Assembly: GCA_039587215.1 (NCBI GenBank)
Contig: JBDHIW010000002.1
Location: forward strand, 8,546-64,550
Length of the DNA: 56,005 nucleotides
DNA from: Gemmatimonadota bacterium
GTDB taxonomy: Bacteria; Gemmatimonadota; Gemmatimonadetes; Gemmatimonadales; GWC2-71-9
Direction of reading: 5' to 3'
Part shown: piece by piece, positions 41,825 through 50,839 of the stretch
Numbering within the stretch: the first letter of the stretch is position 1
How the letters are laid out: the number at the start of each line of letters is the position of its first letter
Translations under genes and position numbers: made by a program
The notes under the pieces: model-generated
What the model was told of the DNA's origin: nothing
The model's input: only the letters and a program-made list of their open reading frames with translations
The model's database searches: none

Positions 41825-43861
41825 ATGACCAACCGATTGCTCGACCGTCCCGTGGCCAAGCGGCCCGCCACGGTGCAGTTCGATGGCCGCATCCTGTTCC
41901 TCGCAGACGACGCGGATCTCGTACGGCGGCAGCTCGCGGGGGAAGACCTGGCGTGGCCGGTGGACACCCCGCTCCGGGACAACATCTCCACCGACGAGAT
42001 CACGCCTGCCTACATCTGCTACTACTACGACGAAAAGCTCGGCGACTTCCCGTACCTCGGTCTCAAGGCGGGTGAGGAGTTCCCCATCGAGCCCGGCTCC
42101 GTCCGCGCAGGGGGGTTCGTCTGCTCCGTGTCGGGCAAGCGGCGCGGGAAGGGGTCGTCGCGCGAGCAGTCGCCGTATGCGGAGCTCTGCGCCGGCATCC
42201 GGCTGGTGATCGCCGAGAACATCGAACGCATCTACCGCGAGAACTGCCAGAACCTCGGGATCCTCACGAGCACGGACTTCGGGCTCATCGAGCGGCTGCG
42301 GTCCGGGGAGGAGATCCCCCTCGACGAGTTCACGGCGGGACTCGGCGAGATTACGCGCGGCATCATCGAGTACGGGGGTCTGTTCCAGTACAACGTCGCG
42401 AGAATGCAGGGGCAGGTGACGGTTCCGGTGCCAGACACCCCCGCTCGCCCCATGACGCTCGGCGAGAAGATCATCGCGCGGCACTGGGTGAAGGACCTCG
42501 CGCGCGGTGCCGTCGGCGTCGATGCGGTCCGCCCCGGCGACGAAGGCTTCGTCCAAACCGACATTCGCTTCAGTCACGAGTACGTCACCCCCATGTCGGC
42601 CATCTTCTGGCGCGACCTGGTCGGTGAGAACGAGAAGGTCGTGGAGCCGGAGTCCATCTTCTTCTTCCGCGACCATCTGACGTTCCTCGAGATTGCGATG
42701 ACCGAAGAGCGCAAGGCGCAGGGCCTGCTCGACGTCGCGCTCGAGCTCAAGAAGAAGCAGGAGGACTTCGCGGAGCAGCAGGGCGTACGGCTCTACGGCG
42801 AGTTGCCGGGCCGCGGGCTCCACGGCATCCCGGTTGGATCGGAAGCCATCTGTCACTCGAAGATCCTGGAACAGCACGCGCTTCCCGGACACCTCATCAT
42901 CGGCAGCGATTCGCACACGCCGCACGCGGGCGCCATCGGTGCTGTGGCGTTCGGTGTCGGCACGACGGCGATCTTCAACTCGTGGCTGACCAAGGACGTC
43001 CGGATCACGGTGCCACCGTCGGTGCTGATCCGGGTCAACGGAGCGACGCCGCCCAACGTGACGGCGAAGGACTTCATGCTGCAGATCCTCCGCCACCCGT
43101 ACGTGAAGAACGGACACGCGATCGGGAAGATCGTCGAGTACGCCGGAGAGGCGGTGGAGGCGCTCTCGATCGACGAGCGCGCGACGATGACCAACATGGC
43201 GGCCGAAGTAGGCGCCTTCACCGGCGTGATTCAGCCGGACGAGAAGGCGGTCGAGTTTCTCGTGCGCGAACGCGGCGCCGACGCCGCGGAGGTCCGGGCG
43301 CTGCTCGACGGACTCGTATCGGACGAGGGTGCCGAGTACGAGACCGTGATCGACATCGACGCCACAACCCTCCAGCCGATGGTGGCCCTCCCCGGCGACC
43401 CGGGCAACGGGCTCTTCATCGACGAACTCGGCGACCCGGTGCGCGTCGATATCGCCTACGCGGGGTCCTGCACGGCGGGCAAGAAGTCCGACATGGACAT
43501 GTACGCTGCCGTGTTCAAGGACGCGCTCGATCGAGGCCAGCGGATTTCGGAGCACGTCAAATGCTTCATCCAGTGCGGGTCGCAGGAGGTGAAGCGGTAC
43601 TGCGAGGAGCGGGGGTACCTGGAGGTGTTCCGCGACGTCGGCGCCGAATTCATCGAGCCGTCATGCGGTGCGTGCATCAACGCGGGGCCGGGCGTCTCCT
43701 ATGACCGCGACACGGTCACCGTGAGTGCCATCAACCGGAACTTCCCCGGGCGGTCCGGTCCGGGTCAGCTCTATCTGGCGAGTCCGTACACGACGGCGGC
43801 CAGCGCCGTCGCCGGCGTGATCACGACCTGGAATGCCGAGGGCGTGCCGGCAGAGGTCTAG
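41825..43861 (+). CDS. Aconitase-family [4Fe-4S] dehydratase, LeuD-like swivel fused N-terminal to LeuC-like domain
   Basis: DNISTDEITP, GKGSSREQS (swivel); MTLGEKI, DH, ICH, GSDSHT, AKD, GSCT, PSCGAC, NRNFPGR, YLASP. Confidence 0.9.
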   Translation: MTNRLLDRPVAKRPATVQFDGRILFLADDADLVRRQLAGEDLAWPVDTPLRDNISTDEITPAYICYYYDEKLGDFPYLGLKAGEEFPIEPGSVRAGGFVCSVSGKRRGKGSSREQSPYAELCAGIRLVIAENIERIYRENCQNLGILTSTDFGLIERLRSGEEIPLDEFTAGLGEITRGIIEYGGLFQYNVARMQGQVTVPVPDTPARPMTLGEKIIARHWVKDLARGAVGVDAVRPGDEGFVQTDIRFSHEYVTPMSAIFWRDLVGENEKVVEPESIFFFRDHLTFLEIAMTEERKAQGLLDVALELKKKQEDFAEQQGVRLYGELPGRGLHGIPVGSEAICHSKILEQHALPGHLIIGSDSHTPHAGAIGAVAFGVGTTAIFNSWLTKDVRITVPPSVLIRVNGATPPNVTAKDFMLQILRHPYVKNGHAIGKIVEYAGEAVEALSIDERATMTNMAAEVGAFTGVIQPDEKAVEFLVRERGADAAEVRALLDGLVSDEGAEYETVIDIDATTLQPMVALPGDPGNGLFIDELGDPVRVDIAYAGSCTAGKKSDMDMYAAVFKDALDRGQRISEHVKCFIQCGSQEVKRYCEERGYLEVFRDVGAEFIEPSCGACINAGPGVSYDRDTVTVSAINRNFPGRSGPGQLYLASPYTTAASAVAGVITTWNAEGVPAEV

Positions 43862-45162
43862 CGGGTCGGCGCGTCCGCCCGGGACGATGGTGACGGGCGA
43901 AAGCCCCCCGGCGGGTACACGCCGCGGGCGTTCCACATCACCCAATCCGTGATGCCGAGGTCCTCGGCGGCCTGAATCTGTGCGCGGACCTCCGTGGCGG
44001 TGTAACGAACGCCGCGGATCGAGAAGCTCTGCAGATAGGGCCGAATCTGTGCTGCGTTCGGGATGTCGGCGGAGCGTGCCACGGCATCCACCAACGCGCG
44101 GCGTACCGTCTCGTATGGCTCGGCGTTCGGGAATCCGATACCGTACGAGCCGCGGCCGTAGTGGCTCGGGTAGATCATGGGCAACAGCACGTCGGCCAGC
44201 GTCGAGAGGTCATCCCACGCCTGCCCGATCCCGAGGTCGCCGGTCGCACTCGTCGTGAGTCCGAAGACGTCGAGGGTAAGCGGCACGCCCAACGCGCGCA
44301 CCCGGTCGCGCAGCATGGCGACATGCCGACCGATGGCGGCCCGCCGGCTCTCGCCGTTGCGTTGCGCTTCGAAGCGGGCGTGCCGCATGCGGGAGGCGCG
44401 CTCGTCGGGGAAGCGCACGTAGTCGAACTGGATCTCCTCGAACCCCATGAGCACCGCTTCCGCTGCGAGGTCCGCGGCGTAGATCCACACCGAATCGTGG
44501 TAGGCGTCGACCCACGGCTCGTCGAGACCGTCGCGCCACAGACCGCCTCGGCGGTCTTTGATAGCCCACGCCGGTTTCCGTGTGGCGAGCAGGGCGTCGC
44601 GCGCCACGACGATCCGCGCGATCGGGTGAATGCCGTGCTCGCGGAGCCGTACGAGCCGGCTCTGCAGATCGGGCGCGCGCACCATGCCGTTCGCCCCGAT
44701 CTCGATGGCCGTCGGAACCGCCGACCGGTACGTCAGATAGCCCGTCGCGTCCTTCACGTCGATCACGAACGCGTTGACCTCGGTCGTGTCCGCGAGCGCG
44801 AGCAGCGGCTCGAGCCGGCTCGAGCCGAAGACCCAGGCGTTGAGGTACAGGCCGCGAACGGCCGCGGGTAGTTCCCCCGAGGGCGGCGGGGGGATGGGAA
44901 TCGGATCCGGCGGGACGTCGCCGACCCGGTAGACCGGAAACTCGGATGTGTGGTGGAGTCGGGTGACCGCCGGCACGTCGGCCGGCGGGGGCGGAAACGC
45001 GATCTCGGGCACTGCGCGGCCCGCCAGCTCGCCCGCATAGTCGGGAATGGCGGCGCGGTGATGGGGCACGGCGAACGACGCGCCGTCTTGGGCGCGGCTC
45101 GCGGCGGGGCCGCACATGGCGGCGATCGCCATCAGTGCGAGAACTCGTGTGGTCGACCGGAT
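43858..45162 (-). CDS. Secreted putative glycoside hydrolase (DUF4015-like TIM barrel), probable ATC start
   Basis: VRGLYL, NAFVIDVKD, IARIVV, GFEEIQFDYVRFPD, DVFG, IGQ, PMIYPSHY, RPYLQSF, WNA; AAGGAGG 5 nt before an in-frame ATC. Confidence 0.82.
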   Translation of the reverse strand: MRSTTRVLALMAIAAMCGPAASRAQDGASFAVPHHRAAIPDYAGELAGRAVPEIAFPPPPADVPAVTRLHHTSEFPVYRVGDVPPDPIPIPPPPSGELPAAVRGLYLNAWVFGSSRLEPLLALADTTEVNAFVIDVKDATGYLTYRSAVPTAIEIGANGMVRAPDLQSRLVRLREHGIHPIARIVVARDALLATRKPAWAIKDRRGGLWRDGLDEPWVDAYHDSVWIYAADLAAEAVLMGFEEIQFDYVRFPDERASRMRHARFEAQRNGESRRAAIGRHVAMLRDRVRALGVPLTLDVFGLTTSATGDLGIGQAWDDLSTLADVLLPMIYPSHYGRGSYGIGFPNAEPYETVRRALVDAVARSADIPNAAQIRPYLQSFSIRGVRYTATEVRAQIQAAEDLGITDWVMWNARGVYPPGGFRPSPSSRADAPTR

Positions 45163-45238: not shown

Positions 45239-46801
45239 TCAGGGTTGCTCGAGCAAGTGAAGCTCGACTCGACGGTTCCGGCGTCGGCCGTCCGGCGTCG
45301 CATTGTCCGCGATCGGACGGTCGGGTCCGTAGCCGCGCGCCACCATTCGGTCGGGCCGAACACCCTGGCGGGCGAGATAAGCCTTGACCGACTGTGCGCG
45401 TGCAAGCGACAGGCGTTGGTTGACCTGCAGCGACCCGCTGGCGTCGGTGTGCCCGGCGATCTCGATCCGGACCATGGGATTCGCCATCAGCGACTCGGCC
45501 ACGCGATCGAGGGCGGCATACGACTCCTCGGTGAGGGCGGACCGGCCCGACTGGAAGGTCACGTCCTCCAGCACGAGCGGGCGGGCAACACCCTGCTCGA
45601 CGAGGAACAGCGTCGGGCACCCGGTCGCGTCGACGGATTCGCCCGCCCGCGTGGCGGGGCAGGCGTCATCCGGATCGAGCACCCCGTCGCCGTCGCTGTC
45701 GCGGACGACCTCACAGCCGCGCGCGTCGACCTCCGTGCCCGCGGCGGTGTTCGGGCACGCGTCCGACGGATCTTCGACGCCGTCACCGTCCGTATCCCGG
45801 ACGCAGCCCGCTGCGTCCACGGGAGCGCCGGCGGGGGTCGCCGGGCACTGATCGAGGCCGTCGTACACCCCGTCGGCGTCGCCGTCCAAGGGACAGCCGC
45901 GCGCGTCGATCTCGGCACCGGCCGGGGTGTCCGGACAGGCGTCGAGTCCGTCGAACACACCATCGACGTCGGTGTCGACCGGACATCCGTTCGCATCGAC
46001 GGCCGCACCGCCGGGAGTGTTCGGGCAGACGTCGATGCCGTTCACCACGGCATCGCCGTCGGAGTCCATGGCGCACCCGGACGTGTCGACGTCGGCGCCT
46101 GCGGGCGTGTCCGGACAGGCGTCGAGTCCGTCGAACACCGTGTCGGCGTCGCCGTCGAGCGGGCAGCCTCGCGGATCGACGAGGGCGCCGAGCGGGGTGC
46201 CCGGGCAGTCGTCGGCTCTGTCGGCCACGCGGTCGCCGTCACGATCGCGGGGTGGGCCGCCGAAGGCGAAGATGGACAGGCCCGCGGCGACCGAGAGGTT
46301 CGTGGTTCTGGCCGTACCGGGCGGCAGCTGGGTCGTGGGGACGTAGTCGATGCGCCCTTCGATCCGGAACGCGGTCCGTCCCCCGAATCCGATACGGTCG
46401 CCGATGACGCCGTGCACGCCGTTGTCGACGCCCTGGGTCACCCCGCGGTAGAAGAGCCGCGTGTACCCCGCACCGAGATAGACGGACCCCAGTGGGGTCC
46501 CGAGGTGCCCGGTCAGGGTGCCGCCCACGCGTGTCACGCGCACGCGTTCCCCCGTCGCGGTCAGTTGTGACTGGGTGTGGTCGGCGACGCCGTCGATCGA
46601 GAGAAACCGCGCGAGGTAGATCCCGAACCACCCACCGGCACCGAACGCGTTGTCGGCGCCCACGCTCGCGGCATCGAAGCGGGTGAAGGACCCGAACGCG
46701 CCCATCTCCACTTGGCCGCCCCGGCCGGTCTGGGCACGCACCGTGGGAACGGCGACGACCGAGAGGACGAGGACGAAGAGGGTACTCCGCCAGCGGAACA
46801 T
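45239..46801 (-). CDS. OmpA family outer membrane protein with thrombospondin type-3 repeats
   Basis: Signal peptide, beta-barrel, seven DxDxDG...CP...GC repeats, IAGHTD...NQRLSLARAQSV...NRRVE peptidoglycan-binding domain. Confidence 0.93.
   Translation of the reverse strand: MFRWRSTLFVLVLSVVAVPTVRAQTGRGGQVEMGAFGSFTRFDAASVGADNAFGAGGWFGIYLARFLSIDGVADHTQSQLTATGERVRVTRVGGTLTGHLGTPLGSVYLGAGYTRLFYRGVTQGVDNGVHGVIGDRIGFGGRTAFRIEGRIDYVPTTQLPPGTARTTNLSVAAGLSIFAFGGPPRDRDGDRVADRADDCPGTPLGALVDPRGCPLDGDADTVFDGLDACPDTPAGADVDTSGCAMDSDGDAVVNGIDVCPNTPGGAAVDANGCPVDTDVDGVFDGLDACPDTPAGAEIDARGCPLDGDADGVYDGLDQCPATPAGAPVDAAGCVRDTDGDGVEDPSDACPNTAAGTEVDARGCEVVRDSDGDGVLDPDDACPATRAGESVDATGCPTLFLVEQGVARPLVLEDVTFQSGRSALTEESYAALDRVAESLMANPMVRIEIAGHTDASGSLQVNQRLSLARAQSVKAYLARQGVRPDRMVARGYGPDRPIADNATPDGRRRNRRVELHLLEQP
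45614..46246 (-). repeat. Seven tandem ~90-bp TSP3 coding repeats
   Basis: 30-aa periodicity; exact 32-bp copy GTGTCCGGACAGGCGTCGAGTCCGTCGAACAC at 45927-45958 and 46107-46138. Confidence 0.9.
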
Positions 46802-46899
46802 GTCTTCAATCTACTACGCTCTTCCGGCACCGACAGGCATTGTCGCCCCTCCGGACGCGTGCATTAGCTTACGGATGTCATCGCCGCACAGAGGAGCAT

Positions 46900-47133
46900 A
46901 TGAAAGTCGCCATCCAGTTCTGCGTCGTCTGAAACTACGGTCCCCGCGCCGCCAGTTTGGCGGACGAGATCCGTGAGGCCTATCCCTCCGGCGATGTCCT
47001 GCTCGTCGACGGGTCGGGTGGCGTATTCGAAGTCTCGGTTGACGGAGACCTCGTTTTCTCGAAGATCGCGCTCGGACGTCACGCCGAGCCGGGAGAGGTG
47101 CTGGGCCTGATCCGGGAGCACCTCGGGGAGTAG
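46900..47133 (+). CDS. SelW/SelT/SelH (Rdx family) selenoprotein, UGA 46930-46932 = Sec
   Basis: GAGGAG SD, ATG 46900; MKVAIQFCVV-U-NYGPRAASLADEI...GSGGVFEVSVDGDLVFSK..GRHAEPGEV...LGE-TAG 47133; CxxU plus GxFEV motif. Confidence 0.93.
46933..46968 (+). promoter_or_regulatory. Putative bacterial SECIS element
   Basis: CCGCC-AGTTT-GGCGG hairpin (46949-46963); loop starts 21 nt after the UGA and has G at its second position. Confidence 0.7.
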
Positions 47134-47136
47134 ACC

Positions 47137-48216
47137 ATGCGCATCGCCATTTCAACCGGCGGGGGAGACGCGCCGGGGCTGAATGCGGTGATCAGGGCAG
47201 CTGTCGTGGGGGCGTTGAACCGCGGGTGGGAGGTCTTCGGCATTCGGCGGGGATTCGGCGGTCTCCTGGGCGACGCCCGGGTCGTGCCGCTCGACCGCGA
47301 GAGCGTGCGCGGGATCACCCACCTCGGCGGGACCATTCTCGGCACGACCAACCGCGGAAATCCCTTCCGCTGGCCGCACCTGCAGACCGACGGAACGTGG
47401 GTGGAGGAAGACCGCTCCGAGGAGGCTCTGGAGGCGTTCCGGGCGCTCGAACTGGACGCGCTGATCGCCGTCGGCGGCGATGGGACGCTGCACATCGCAC
47501 GCGAACTCTGGCGGAGGGGTCTGCCCGTGGTGGGCGTGCCGAAGACGATCGACAACGACGTCGGCGCCACCGTCGTCACGTTCGGCTTCGACACGGCGGT
47601 CACGACGGCGACCGAGGCGCTCGACAAGCTGCACTCGACGGCGGAAGCGCACGAGCGCGTCATGGTCGTCGAGGTGATGGGGCGCCACGCGGGATGGATC
47701 GCCCTCAACTCCGGACTCGCGGGTACCGCCGACGTCATCCTCATGCCCGAGATTCCGTACCGGATGGATTCCGTGATCGCGAAGGTGCGCGAGCGCGAAG
47801 CTGCCGGGCGGCACTTCAGCATCATCGTCGTCGCCGAGGGGGCCGCTCCGGCGGAAGGCTCTCCGACGTACCAGGCTGAGGCCGCGGCCGGGGGGACGGC
47901 CCGGCTGGGTGGTGTCGCAGAAGCGATCGCGGCGGTGATCCAGGAGCAGACCGGCAAGGAGACCCGGTCGCTGACGCTTGGGCACCTGCAGCGCGGAGGC
48001 ACGCCGACGACGTTCGACCGGCTGCTCGGACTGCGATTCGGTGCGGCGGCGGTGCGCGCGGTGGAACGCGGCGAGTTCGGTTCGATGGTCGCGCTGGATC
48101 CGCCGACGATCCTCACGGTGCCGATGGACGACGCCCTGGGCACCGTCAAGGGCGTCCCGCTCGACTCGGACAGCGTGGTGACGGCTCGAGACCTGGGTAT
48201 CTGCCTGGGTGACTGA
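47137..48216 (+). CDS. pfkA: 6-phosphofructokinase (group III-like)
   Basis: TGGGDAPGLNA, GGTILGT, GGDGT, PKTIDND, TFGFDTA, EVMGRHAGW, VAEGA, LGHLQRGG. Confidence 0.93.
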   Translation: MRIAISTGGGDAPGLNAVIRAAVVGALNRGWEVFGIRRGFGGLLGDARVVPLDRESVRGITHLGGTILGTTNRGNPFRWPHLQTDGTWVEEDRSEEALEAFRALELDALIAVGGDGTLHIARELWRRGLPVVGVPKTIDNDVGATVVTFGFDTAVTTATEALDKLHSTAEAHERVMVVEVMGRHAGWIALNSGLAGTADVILMPEIPYRMDSVIAKVREREAAGRHFSIIVVAEGAAPAEGSPTYQAEAAAGGTARLGGVAEAIAAVIQEQTGKETRSLTLGHLQRGGTPTTFDRLLGLRFGAAAVRAVERGEFGSMVALDPPTILTVPMDDALGTVKGVPLDSDSVVTARDLGICLGD

Positions 48217-50839
48217 CACCGAGGAGCGCGCGGACGGCGCCGCGCCGCTCCGTCACGTCCGCGACCACTACCTGCCGCCCGACCGGGCGGCGTACCGCCG
48301 GGCCGAGCCTTCGACTGGCCGTGTGATCGTCATCGCGCCGACACGCGCGGCGTGCGAGACCATCGAATTGGCGTGCGGGCTCACCATCGACACGGTCTTG
48401 TCGCGCGCGCATGGCGACGAGGTGCGGTCGCTGGCCGCGGGCGGCAGAGGATTCGGCATTGTCGCGGGTACGGGGACCGGGAAGACGCTCGCGGTACGGC
48501 TCATCGCGGAAGAGACGGTCGGCACACCCCTGCGCATCGGCGTCGTGAACCGCGAGCGCGAGGCGACGCCGGAGACCCCCAGTTGGAACGTCGTGATCGT
48601 GACGACCGGCATCGCGCGAAGGTGGTTTCAGGACGATCTCATCCAGCCGCAGGACACGCTCGTCGTCGACGAGATCCACCAGACGTCGGCGGAGCTCGAG
48701 TTGTGCTTGGCCCTGGGGAAACGCGTGGGGTGTCGGTTCATCTGGTTGTCCGCGACGGTGGACCCCTCGTTCTACGAGCGCTACCTGGACGCGTCGGCGG
48801 TGCTGGAAACCTCGGCGTTCGACCCCGCGCTGAGCGCCAACGTTGCGACCGCACGCCGCACGCCGGTGGACTTCTTCGATCGGGGGGTGCTGCGCCGGTT
48901 CGTGCGCGAGGAGCGAGGCGTCGCGGTGTTCCTGCCGACCCGATCGGAAGTCGAAAAGTTGGCGGCGGAACTGGGGGACGAGTGGCCCGAGATCGCGACG
49001 GCCTTCTATCACGGCGGCGAGCCGATCCGCGTGATCCGTCCGTTCCTCGAGGGGACCGCGGAGCGACCCTATCTGCTCGTGATGACGCAGGCTGGGCAGT
49101 CGGCGCTCAACATCCACGGCCTGGACACGGTCGTGATCTACGACGCGTGCTACCAGAACCGGGTTCTCGGTGGGCGCAACGTGCTCCAGCGGCAGTACTT
49201 GGGTCCCAACGAGATCCTGCAGATGGCGGGCCGGGTCCACGGTCGGGTGGCCCAGGGTGAGGTACACATCCTCACGGACCGTGACATCGACTTCTTTGCC
49301 CTCGAACCCGTCCCGCCGCAGTTCCAACTAGCGGGCGACTCCGAGCGGGTCGCGTTGACGGCGGCCGCACTCGGTGTGGACCTGTCGGATCTCGAGTTGC
49401 CCGTGCCCCTGGACCGGCGGGCCTACCGTGCGGCGCGGCGGCGGCTGGAGGATCGCGGGATCGTGGACGGCGGGCGGCTCACGGCGTACGGCCGTGAGGT
49501 GGAGGCGATGCCCGTCGACCGTCCCTGGGCTGAACTGCTCGTGCACGCCTCGGACGCGCTGGCGCCGTACGTGGCCGTTGCCGCCAGCGTCGATTCACTC
49601 CATCGGATGACGCGGGACCTCGTGGACCTCCGCGGCCTCGAGGTGTACGGCAGCGATCATCTCACGGTGTACAACGTGTACGCGGAGGCGGTCAACCTCT
49701 ACGGCAGCGTCGGCGAGGTCTACGGTCTGCCGCGCCATGTCTTCGATCCGACGATCGAGGAGTGGGCCCAGGATCGTGGGGTGCTCGTGAAGGCGATCGA
49801 AGACGCGGCGCTCGGCATGGCATCCGTCTACCGCACGCTCGAGTTGCCGCTACCTGAGGCGCTCCCGATCGTGGACCGCGCAGCCGCGCGCGCGTATCGG
49901 GACCTGGTTGCCCGGGTGTGCCCGTTCGACCTCGTCGTCGACGGAGAGACGGCTGACGGGTCGCGGGTGCGCATCTCGGACTCCTCGATGTGCTCCCGAG
50001 GGAGCGCGGTCGCCGGACCCATTCGGTATTTCGCGGACCGGTTCGGCCGCCCGCGCGGCGCGATCGAAGGCACCACCCTCTCGCGGGAGTTGATGCGACG
50101 CCATGCGACCCGGGAGGGTCCCGTCGTCGAGTATCGAGGCGAGCGGGGCCGCACCCGGTTGGTGGCGGTGGAGACGCTCACCTATGCCGGCTTCACCCTG
50201 GATCGGATCTCGGAGCCGGTGAGGGGATTCCCGGAGGACCTCGCGGAGGAGATTCGCGGGGCGATGGCGGACGGACTCATGCGGGGCGTCACGGAGCATC
50301 CGGGACAGCGGGAGGTCGGACGGGTGGCCGCGCGTATCGACGAGTACTGGCGACGTTCCGGGGGAACCCTCGACGGAGCGAATCCGGAGCGCGTGCGTGC
50401 GGGGCTGCTCGAGCAACTCAGTGAGGTGAAGAGCCACGCGGACTTCATGGCGGCGTCTCTGCACCTCGACCTCGATGCCGCGGTGTTGCCGCGGGACCGG
50501 CATCCCCTCGACGCCCTTCCGGACTCCGCCTTCGTGCTCGGCGACCGTGTGCCGCTCCGGTACGACGTGGCCGAGGGCCGCCCGATCGTGGAACTGGCAC
50601 TCCGCGAAAAGCAGGCCAGGCGGCTTCGCGCACAGGACCTGCCGGACGTTGATCGGGATCTCGTGTTCGTGGTTTACCGAGGCCGAACGGAACTGCTGCG
50701 CGCGCGGTCGCTGCCGCAGCTGCGCGGGAGTCTCCGTGGGCTACGCCCGCCTCCACGAGGTGGAGGTGGTGGGCGTAGCGGGCGCGGCGGACGCGGTGGG
50801 CGTAGCGGAAGCGGTGGGAGGGGGCGCCGGCGCCGTTAG
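48209..50839 (+). CDS. DExH-box (HrpA/HrpB-like) helicase with RGG tail
   Basis: AGTGTGKT, TTGIA, DEIH, SAT, FLPT, YHG, QMAGRVHGR, LT.YG..V..MP; C-terminal GRSGRGGRGGRSG. Confidence 0.85.
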   Translation: MTDTEERADGAAPLRHVRDHYLPPDRAAYRRAEPSTGRVIVIAPTRAACETIELACGLTIDTVLSRAHGDEVRSLAAGGRGFGIVAGTGTGKTLAVRLIAEETVGTPLRIGVVNREREATPETPSWNVVIVTTGIARRWFQDDLIQPQDTLVVDEIHQTSAELELCLALGKRVGCRFIWLSATVDPSFYERYLDASAVLETSAFDPALSANVATARRTPVDFFDRGVLRRFVREERGVAVFLPTRSEVEKLAAELGDEWPEIATAFYHGGEPIRVIRPFLEGTAERPYLLVMTQAGQSALNIHGLDTVVIYDACYQNRVLGGRNVLQRQYLGPNEILQMAGRVHGRVAQGEVHILTDRDIDFFALEPVPPQFQLAGDSERVALTAAALGVDLSDLELPVPLDRRAYRAARRRLEDRGIVDGGRLTAYGREVEAMPVDRPWAELLVHASDALAPYVAVAASVDSLHRMTRDLVDLRGLEVYGSDHLTVYNVYAEAVNLYGSVGEVYGLPRHVFDPTIEEWAQDRGVLVKAIEDAALGMASVYRTLELPLPEALPIVDRAAARAYRDLVARVCPFDLVVDGETADGSRVRISDSSMCSRGSAVAGPIRYFADRFGRPRGAIEGTTLSRELMRRHATREGPVVEYRGERGRTRLVAVETLTYAGFTLDRISEPVRGFPEDLAEEIRGAMADGLMRGVTEHPGQREVGRVAARIDEYWRRSGGTLDGANPERVRAGLLEQLSEVKSHADFMAASLHLDLDAAVLPRDRHPLDALPDSAFVLGDRVPLRYDVAEGRPIVELALREKQARRLRAQDLPDVDRDLVFVVYRGRTELLRARSLPQLRGSLRGLRPPPRGGGGGRSGRGGRGGRSGSGGRGRRRR

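Follow-up and report, generated by a model that had tools for sequence, protein, structure and literature searches.

Results

A selW-like gene with an in-frame UGA

The window, by which we mean the whole stretch of DNA that was analysed (56,005 nt of a Gemmatimonadota genome), carries on its plus strand a short selW-like gene that is separated by 98 nt from a divergent upstream gene of the OmpA family and is followed by a phosphofructokinase gene (pfk) and a helicase gene (Table 1). Read directly from the letters, a Shine-Dalgarno-like GAGGAG is followed by a 3-nt spacer (CAT) and by an ATG, after which codons 2 to 10 read KVAIQFCVV and codon 11 is TGA, codons 8 to 11 thus spelling Cys-Val-Val-TGA. 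Past the TGA, the frame is free of stops and runs through a GVFEV block and an FSK block to a TAG at 47131-47133, which gives a product of 77 residues when TGA is translated as U. An earlier first-pass annotation, made from the sequence and a list of open reading frames (ORFs), had proposed each of these elements, namely the GAGGAG, the ATG, the Cys-Val-Val-TGA and an open frame with GxFEV and FSK motifs up to the TAG, and all of them are present, base for base, where it had placed them.

The same annotation had also held that the ORF track missed this gene. This is accurate for the full 77-aa frame, which is absent from the ORF list, where the locus is represented only by a 30-aa ORF for which the TGA is the stop and by a 58-aa ORF that starts from a TTG. 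It is too strong for the 3' part of the gene, which the protein collection does hold as a 58-aa entry (P0002, 100% identity, 75% query cover) starting from the same TTG. The selW-like gene is therefore truncated in annotation rather than missed outright. The homologues that are listed in the protein collection are mostly 52-59 aa long, and the same annotation error affects most of them.

Table 1. Coordinates of the selW-like gene, its neighbours in the window, and the genes for selenocysteine use discussed here that lie on other contigs of the same genome (G000)
Feature	Position	Strand	Basis or remark
424-aa protein, full DUF4015 putative glycosyl hydrolase domain	43858-45132	-	E 8.3e-93
520-aa outer-membrane protein, OmpA family	45239-46801	-	N-terminal beta-barrel, thrombospondin type 3 repeats, C-terminal OmpA domain
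Shine-Dalgarno-like GAGGAG	46891-46896	+	3 nt upstream of the ATG; sequence reading
CDS, 77-aa SelW-like (Rdx family) selenoprotein	46900-47133	+	Translation with TGA=U; PF10262, TIGR02174, NF041051
CxxU redox motif Cys8-Val-Val-Sec11	46921-46932	+	Translation; Sec codon TGA 46930-46932
Putative SECIS-type hairpin in the coding region	46947-46966	+	MFE fold; covariation in alignment A1, columns 24-42
58-aa ORF from TTG, truncated form in the protein collection	46957-47133	+	ORF list; P0002
Phosphofructokinase gene (pfk)	47137-48216	+	PF00365, E 3e-103
876-aa DEAD/DEAH-type helicase gene	48209-50839	+	8-nt overlap with the end of pfk
selD (selenophosphate synthetase), locus L017	G000:C18:20698-21630	-	TGA at the catalytic Cys position
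selB 3' fragment, last 32 codons, locus L019	G000:C220:2-97	+	Start of a 9.5-kb contig
Sec-containing fdhA, locus L062	G000:C217:5220-8966	+	TGA at C217:7311; TIGR01591

The read-through product belongs to the Rdx family

When the UGA is read through, the product matches the Pfam Rdx family (PF10262) with 69.3 bits (cut-off 22.6, E 3.4e-19), residues 2-73 aligning with profile positions 1-74 of 74 in a match that extends across the UGA. It also scores above the cut-offs of two NCBIfam models, with 58.9 bits for TIGR02174 (CXXU_selWTH, cut-off 34.2) and a borderline 89.1 bits for NF041051 (SelTWH_Campy, cut-off 88). The assignment to the Rdx/SelW family, which had first been made from the motifs, is confirmed by this full-length match and by the two further models.

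We built a profile from 35 homologues and used it both for a search of solved structures and for an AlphaFold model. The profile finds the SelW-related structures 2fa8, 3dex, 2obk, 2oka, 2ojl, and 2p0g, and it also finds MIEN1 (2ljk) and mouse selenoprotein W (2npb), with E values of 7.4e-12 and 1.1e-6, respectively. In the printed profile alignments, the CxxC motif of 2fa8 and 3dex (CTQC in both) falls on the CxxU column. The AlphaFold model, with a pLDDT of 92.3, has the order strand-helix-strand-strand-strand-helix (strands at residues 2-8, 32-38, 43-47, and 50-54; helices at 14-27 and 66-75), and the CxxU motif sits between strand 1 and helix 1. The best matches of the model in the PDB are SelW-related proteins, with a TM score of 0.87 and an rmsd of 1.2 for 2fa8, and thioredoxins and glutaredoxin come lower in the same list. 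A thioredoxin-like fold is thus predicted for the product on the basis of the model.

The first-pass annotation had expected the family to carry Cys or Sec at the position of the UGA, and alignment of this column bears it out. Apart from the CTQC of 2fa8 and 3dex, Cys is found there in three full-length homologues of the Cys form in the protein collection (P0069, P0097, and P0100, all with CAPC). Two other full-length database homologues have Arg (CVTR in P0003) or Trp (CTSW in P0013) at this column; these may represent either true variants or artefacts of translation.

The UGA is conserved among relatives

We determined how widely the gene and its UGA are conserved. Among the genomes of 60 relatives, which represent three families of one order and take in one unpublished genome (G017), the gene is found in 56, with an in-frame TGA in every case. 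Of 301 genomes sampled from the phylum, which take in three further unpublished ones (G099, G186, and G211), 185 have a match, and one TGA is found in every one of the 150 matches that are listed (37 further ones being unlisted). The conclusion that the UGA is conserved is independent of these four unpublished genomes.

In the 30 loci that were fetched from relatives, the TGA is at the same column in all cases (within CVV*NY or CGV*GY), as is the start codon, and the 56-75% identity between the proteins is spread over both sides of the TGA. All five loci compared from other families of the class keep the column too, with identities of 40-50%. Finally, we found TGA at this column, and no Cys form, in all 80 named public loci, 78 of which are Gemmatimonadales, Gemmatimonadaceae, Gemmatimonadetes or Gemmatimonadota MAGs by their record titles. 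The Sec form therefore appears to be the rule within the sampled Gemmatimonadales (80/80).

Some lineages show other patterns. In one genus of the same family (g52), the gene is present in only 1 of 11 genomes; one relative (G033) keeps only residues 1-32 of the selW-like gene, and the match in another (G056) holds two TGA codons. These patterns may represent gene loss or decay in some lineages. A contig from an RNA library spans 46938-47124, a stretch without the UGA, which documents presence in the library and is not proof of transcription.

A covarying hairpin follows the UGA

A hairpin with a G in its loop, located 21 nt after the UGA, had been proposed on first pass, and we found it at exactly this distance. 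Its core stem pairs CCGCC (46949-46953) with GGCGG (46959-46963) around a loop AGUUU (46954-46958), which begins 21 nt past the UGA and whose second base is a G. In the MFE fold, two further pairs, G46948-C46965 and C46947-G46966, lengthen the stem of the window's copy and leave A46964 as a bulge. The MFE fold of this copy alone also gives an outer helix ACGG/CCGU (46937-46940 with 46971-46974), which we do not count towards the proposed element. Folded by itself, the window's hairpin is no better than dinucleotide shuffles (z = -0.71 and -1.46), from which a single-sequence fold is therefore indistinguishable, so it is the alignment of relatives that carries the claim of a hairpin. A scan of 46800-47250 against Rfam, with E values up to 10, gave no SECIS family and one chance match to a snoRNA.

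The consensus of the 30 loci from relatives is GCCGCC-GGUCU-GGCGGC, that is, a 7-bp stem (GCCGCC plus a closing pair) that begins 14 nt past the UGA and is capped by a loop GGUCU or AGUUU. We performed a covariation test on nine proposed pairs in these 30 loci, using 500 shuffles and five measures. Standard pairs make up 96.3% of the cells, and none of the 500 shuffles reaches the observed value on any of the five measures, a count that overstates significance because the sequences are related. When the 3' partners are slid by 1-3 columns, pairing falls to 24-61% of cells. Four pairs of the hairpin change on both sides, and RNAalifold, unaided, recovers the inner six pairs.

Most of the covariation falls on synonymous sites, and the clearest case is that of alignment columns 24 and 42, which are the third positions of an Arg and an Ala codon and are synonymous. 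Across the 30 loci, this pair is GC in 16, CG in 6, AU in 3, GU, UA, and UG in 1 each, and unpaired in 2; it is formed in 74 of the 80 named loci. The window's copy accounts for one of the two unpaired cases, with Asp in place of Ala, and pairs here only via the bulged A46964. Its hairpin is accordingly weaker than the consensus, with 5 core pairs and with columns 24-42 and 25-41 mismatched unless A46964 bulges. All 30 loci have G at loop position 2 (alignment column 32), and the loop motif is found in 80/80 named loci, 71 of which have NGUYU (GGTCT in 47, AGTTT in 16, and AGTCT in 8). Relatedness of the sequences notwithstanding, the occurrence of several pair types at synonymous sites argues for repeated compensation. 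As judged from this alignment, a bacterial SECIS-type element is supported, which would be the site bound by SelB. The alignment offers a clean case of RNA covariation via synonymous codon positions and could seed a covariance model for this SECIS type.

A separate comparison was made with metagenome contigs of other organisms, in which the sole stretch of the gene that aligns at 90% or more is 46916-46973, containing the UGA and the hairpin. Such contigs come from four metagenomes (X1, X3, X4, and X9) and show 2-5 differences, diverging on both flanks. Since the alignment is confined to this stretch, it is the part of the gene that is most conserved at the nucleotide level.

The genome encodes selenocysteine machinery and other selenoproteins

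The first-pass annotation implied that the organism should have the machinery for selenocysteine. The assembly that we searched has 302 contigs, totals 2.84 Mb and reaches 87% completeness. It contains a tRNA-Sec (78.1 bits), which ARAGORN also calls as tRNA-SeC with anticodon tca, together with selA (495.2 bits) and selD (371.1 bits). The implication thus holds for these three components and only in part for selB, of which the last 32 codons are found, at the edge of a contig. This fragment has 23.3 bits for SelB-wing_3 and shares 64% identity with residues 593-617 of a SelB from the same genus. A whole selB was not found in the genome: the best match to TIGR00475, in a frame of 394 aa, spans positions 1-264 of the 581 in the model and stays below the cut-off, and the same-genus SelB used as a query gave nothing better. 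selB is over the cut-off in all five relatives that were searched. We read the gap in selB as an assembly break, not as a loss.

Another TIGR00475 match (C285:7-78, model positions 1-24) was considered as a possible N-terminus of selB and was dropped because relatives with a complete selB at another place show similar matches of 24-26 residues.

We also scanned the genome for the pattern of a TGA with a hairpin downstream whose loop reads RGUYY. This yielded 38 candidates, three of which looked by eye like real proteins: the selW-like gene, selD, and fdhA. selD itself carries an in-frame TGA and reads SHGAG-U-ACK. In fdhA, which scores 735 bits for TIGR01591 (cut-off 666) and reads NCSRA-U-HAPTV, the UGA is followed by the hairpin GGUUGCC-GGUCU-GGCAGCC, whose loop starts 18 nt after the UGA. 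These findings indicate that the lineage decodes selenocysteine, the genome having three selenoprotein genes or more. Downstream of the TGA of selD are two hairpins, the second being GGCGCA-GGUCC-UGCGCC, and fdhA, encoding the alpha subunit of formate dehydrogenase, is preceded in frame by an iron-sulfur part resembling NuoG/HoxU.

Other readings of the UGA

We considered whether the UGA might be a true stop, the product being the 58-aa protein from the TTG and the 10 upstream codons a leader or non-coding. Although this form is the one held in the protein collection, in line with the length of most homologues listed there, gene callers yield such short database entries at any Sec codon. In addition, the 10 codons ahead of the TGA show conservation of the encoded protein in 30/30 loci, with the pattern M-x-V/I-x-I-E/Q-Y/F-C-V-V, PF10262 is matched from its position 1 and across the UGA, and the 58-aa product would be without strand 1 and without the redox motif of the modelled fold. 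We therefore think it very improbable that translation ends at this codon.

The chance is similarly slim that the UGA is read as a residue other than Sec (Trp, Cys or Gly), whether via near-cognate decoding or via reassignment. The genome argues against it on two counts, as TGA ends 712/1179 of its stop-to-stop frames of at least 500 codons, and is therefore an ordinary stop that is not reassigned, and as it has a dedicated tRNA-Sec, selA, and selD. One database homologue with W and one with R at the column could be taken in favour of such a reading, but the column is Cys in the Cys-form homologues, which is the classic exchange between Sec and Cys, and the hairpin covaries, as is expected of a SelB-binding site. 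That the locus is a pseudogene, or its TGA a sequencing or assembly error for TGC or TGT, has only a bare stop codon in a 302-contig draft assembly in its favour and is practically negligible, given the TGA in all 80 named loci and in all 150 listed matches of the phylum sample, the intact frame on both sides of it, and contigs from two other public studies (X3 record 6 and X4 record 14) that cover it with 0 differences.

Genomic context

The start of pfk is 3 nt past the stop codon of the selW-like gene, and the GGGGAG of pfk (47125-47130) lies inside the last codons of the selW-like gene. The two genes are probably co-transcribed. Within the order, 29 of 30 loci keep both the sequence of the two genes and their strand, with 0-81 nt between them, but only one of five loci from other families of the class does so, for which reason the arrangement may reflect synteny within the lineage and no functional link. 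One could imagine that, in Gemmatimonadales, the selW-like gene is the first cistron of a unit with pfk, either as a redox partner of PFK or with slow, selenium-dependent decoding of the UGA gating the translation of pfk. We regard such a role as unlikely; if it were true, it would link glycolytic flux to the redox or selenium status. The helicase gene is also found downstream of pfk in many relatives, and in the window its product ends in a long Gly/Arg-rich tail (RGGGGGRSGRGGRGG...).

Discussion

The stretch 46900-47133 is a genuine 77-residue gene for a SelW-like CxxU selenoprotein, cut short by gene callers at its UGA. The interpretation as a CxxU selenoprotein with a bacterial SECIS, as put forward in the first-pass annotation, is supported by the full-length Rdx match, by the Cys/UGA column and by the covarying hairpin. 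We are highly confident that this stretch encodes, on the plus strand, a thioredoxin-fold protein of the SelW/SelT/SelH (Rdx) family with the active site Cys8-Val-Val-Sec11, with Sec presumably inserted at the UGA by the bacterial Sec pathway. The annotation is corrected accordingly, the public entry being a stub of 58 aa without the active site.

By analogy with the bacterial pathway, we infer the following sequence of events. The mRNA would fold a short G+C-rich hairpin 14-16 nt after the UGA, the AGUUU loop of which would be bound by SelB-GTP carrying Sec-tRNA(Sec), with the tRNA made by SelA and selenophosphate coming from SelD. SelB would then deliver selenocysteine to the UGA in place of release factor 2. 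The product most likely cycles between a selenol/thiol and a selenenylsulfide state, acting on its presumed substrate as a small thiol-dependent oxidoreductase, and transcription of its gene is probably joint with that of the downstream pfk. The G and the U of the apical loop are bases that SelB contacts in the systems of E. coli and Moorella.

In mammals, the related selenoprotein W (2npb) and MIEN1 (2ljk) share with the protein described here a common family, as judged by the profile, and a predicted common fold, at a lower similarity (TM 0.69-0.75). In eukaryotic SelW, the SECIS is in the 3'UTR and is served by a different factor (SBP2/eEFSec), whereas the candidate element of the selW-like gene falls within the coding region, close behind the UGA. 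Closer to the model are the Cys-form SelW-related structures (2fa8 Atu0228, 3dex SAV_2001, 2obk, 2oka, 2ojl, and 2p0g), the fold of which it shares, with TM scores of 0.86-0.89 and rmsd values of 1.2-1.4. The solved SelW-related chains are, however, longer (103-108 aa), and 2fa8 and 3dex carry CxxC where the protein described here has CxxU. None of the titles of the SelW-related PDB entries gives an assigned function.

Bacterial SelW-like selenoproteins have been known since 2005. According to the Sargasso Sea study (PMC1088965), SelW-like proteins were the most abundant selenoprotein family in that set, with 48 genes, and their motif suggested a redox role; the bacterial SECIS is described there as a hairpin 3' of the UGA whose small apical loop contains a G. 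The gene in the window resembles such proteins in its length of about 75 aa, its N-terminal CxxU, its GG-FEV and FSK blocks and its full-length HMM match, and it fits the description of the SECIS in that study as well, with the UGA followed by a small hairpin whose apical loop has a G. SelW-like proteins also figure among the bacterial selenoprotein families in a second study (PMC1794560), where few Cys homologues are reported from organisms that use Sec.

What sets the present gene apart from the known bacterial SelW-like selenoproteins is its lineage, the Gemmatimonadales, and its position directly before pfk in this order. A full-text literature search for selenoproteins of the phylum, judged by titles and the starts of abstracts, returned no description of one, and the main text of a review (PMC13188914) does not mention SelW, Rdx or Gemmatimon. 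The gene is nonetheless a typical mis-annotated member of a familiar family, a correct but ordinary case, and the finding leaves knowledge of the SelW-like family unchanged.

Within the genome itself, the closest parallel to the putative element is the SECIS of fdhA, which likewise combines a G+C-rich stem with a pentaloop that reads G-U at positions 2-3. The consensus loop of the relatives' SelW-like genes, GGUCU, is the same as that of fdhA, while the window's copy differs from both in its AGUUU loop and has a stem shorter than that of the consensus.
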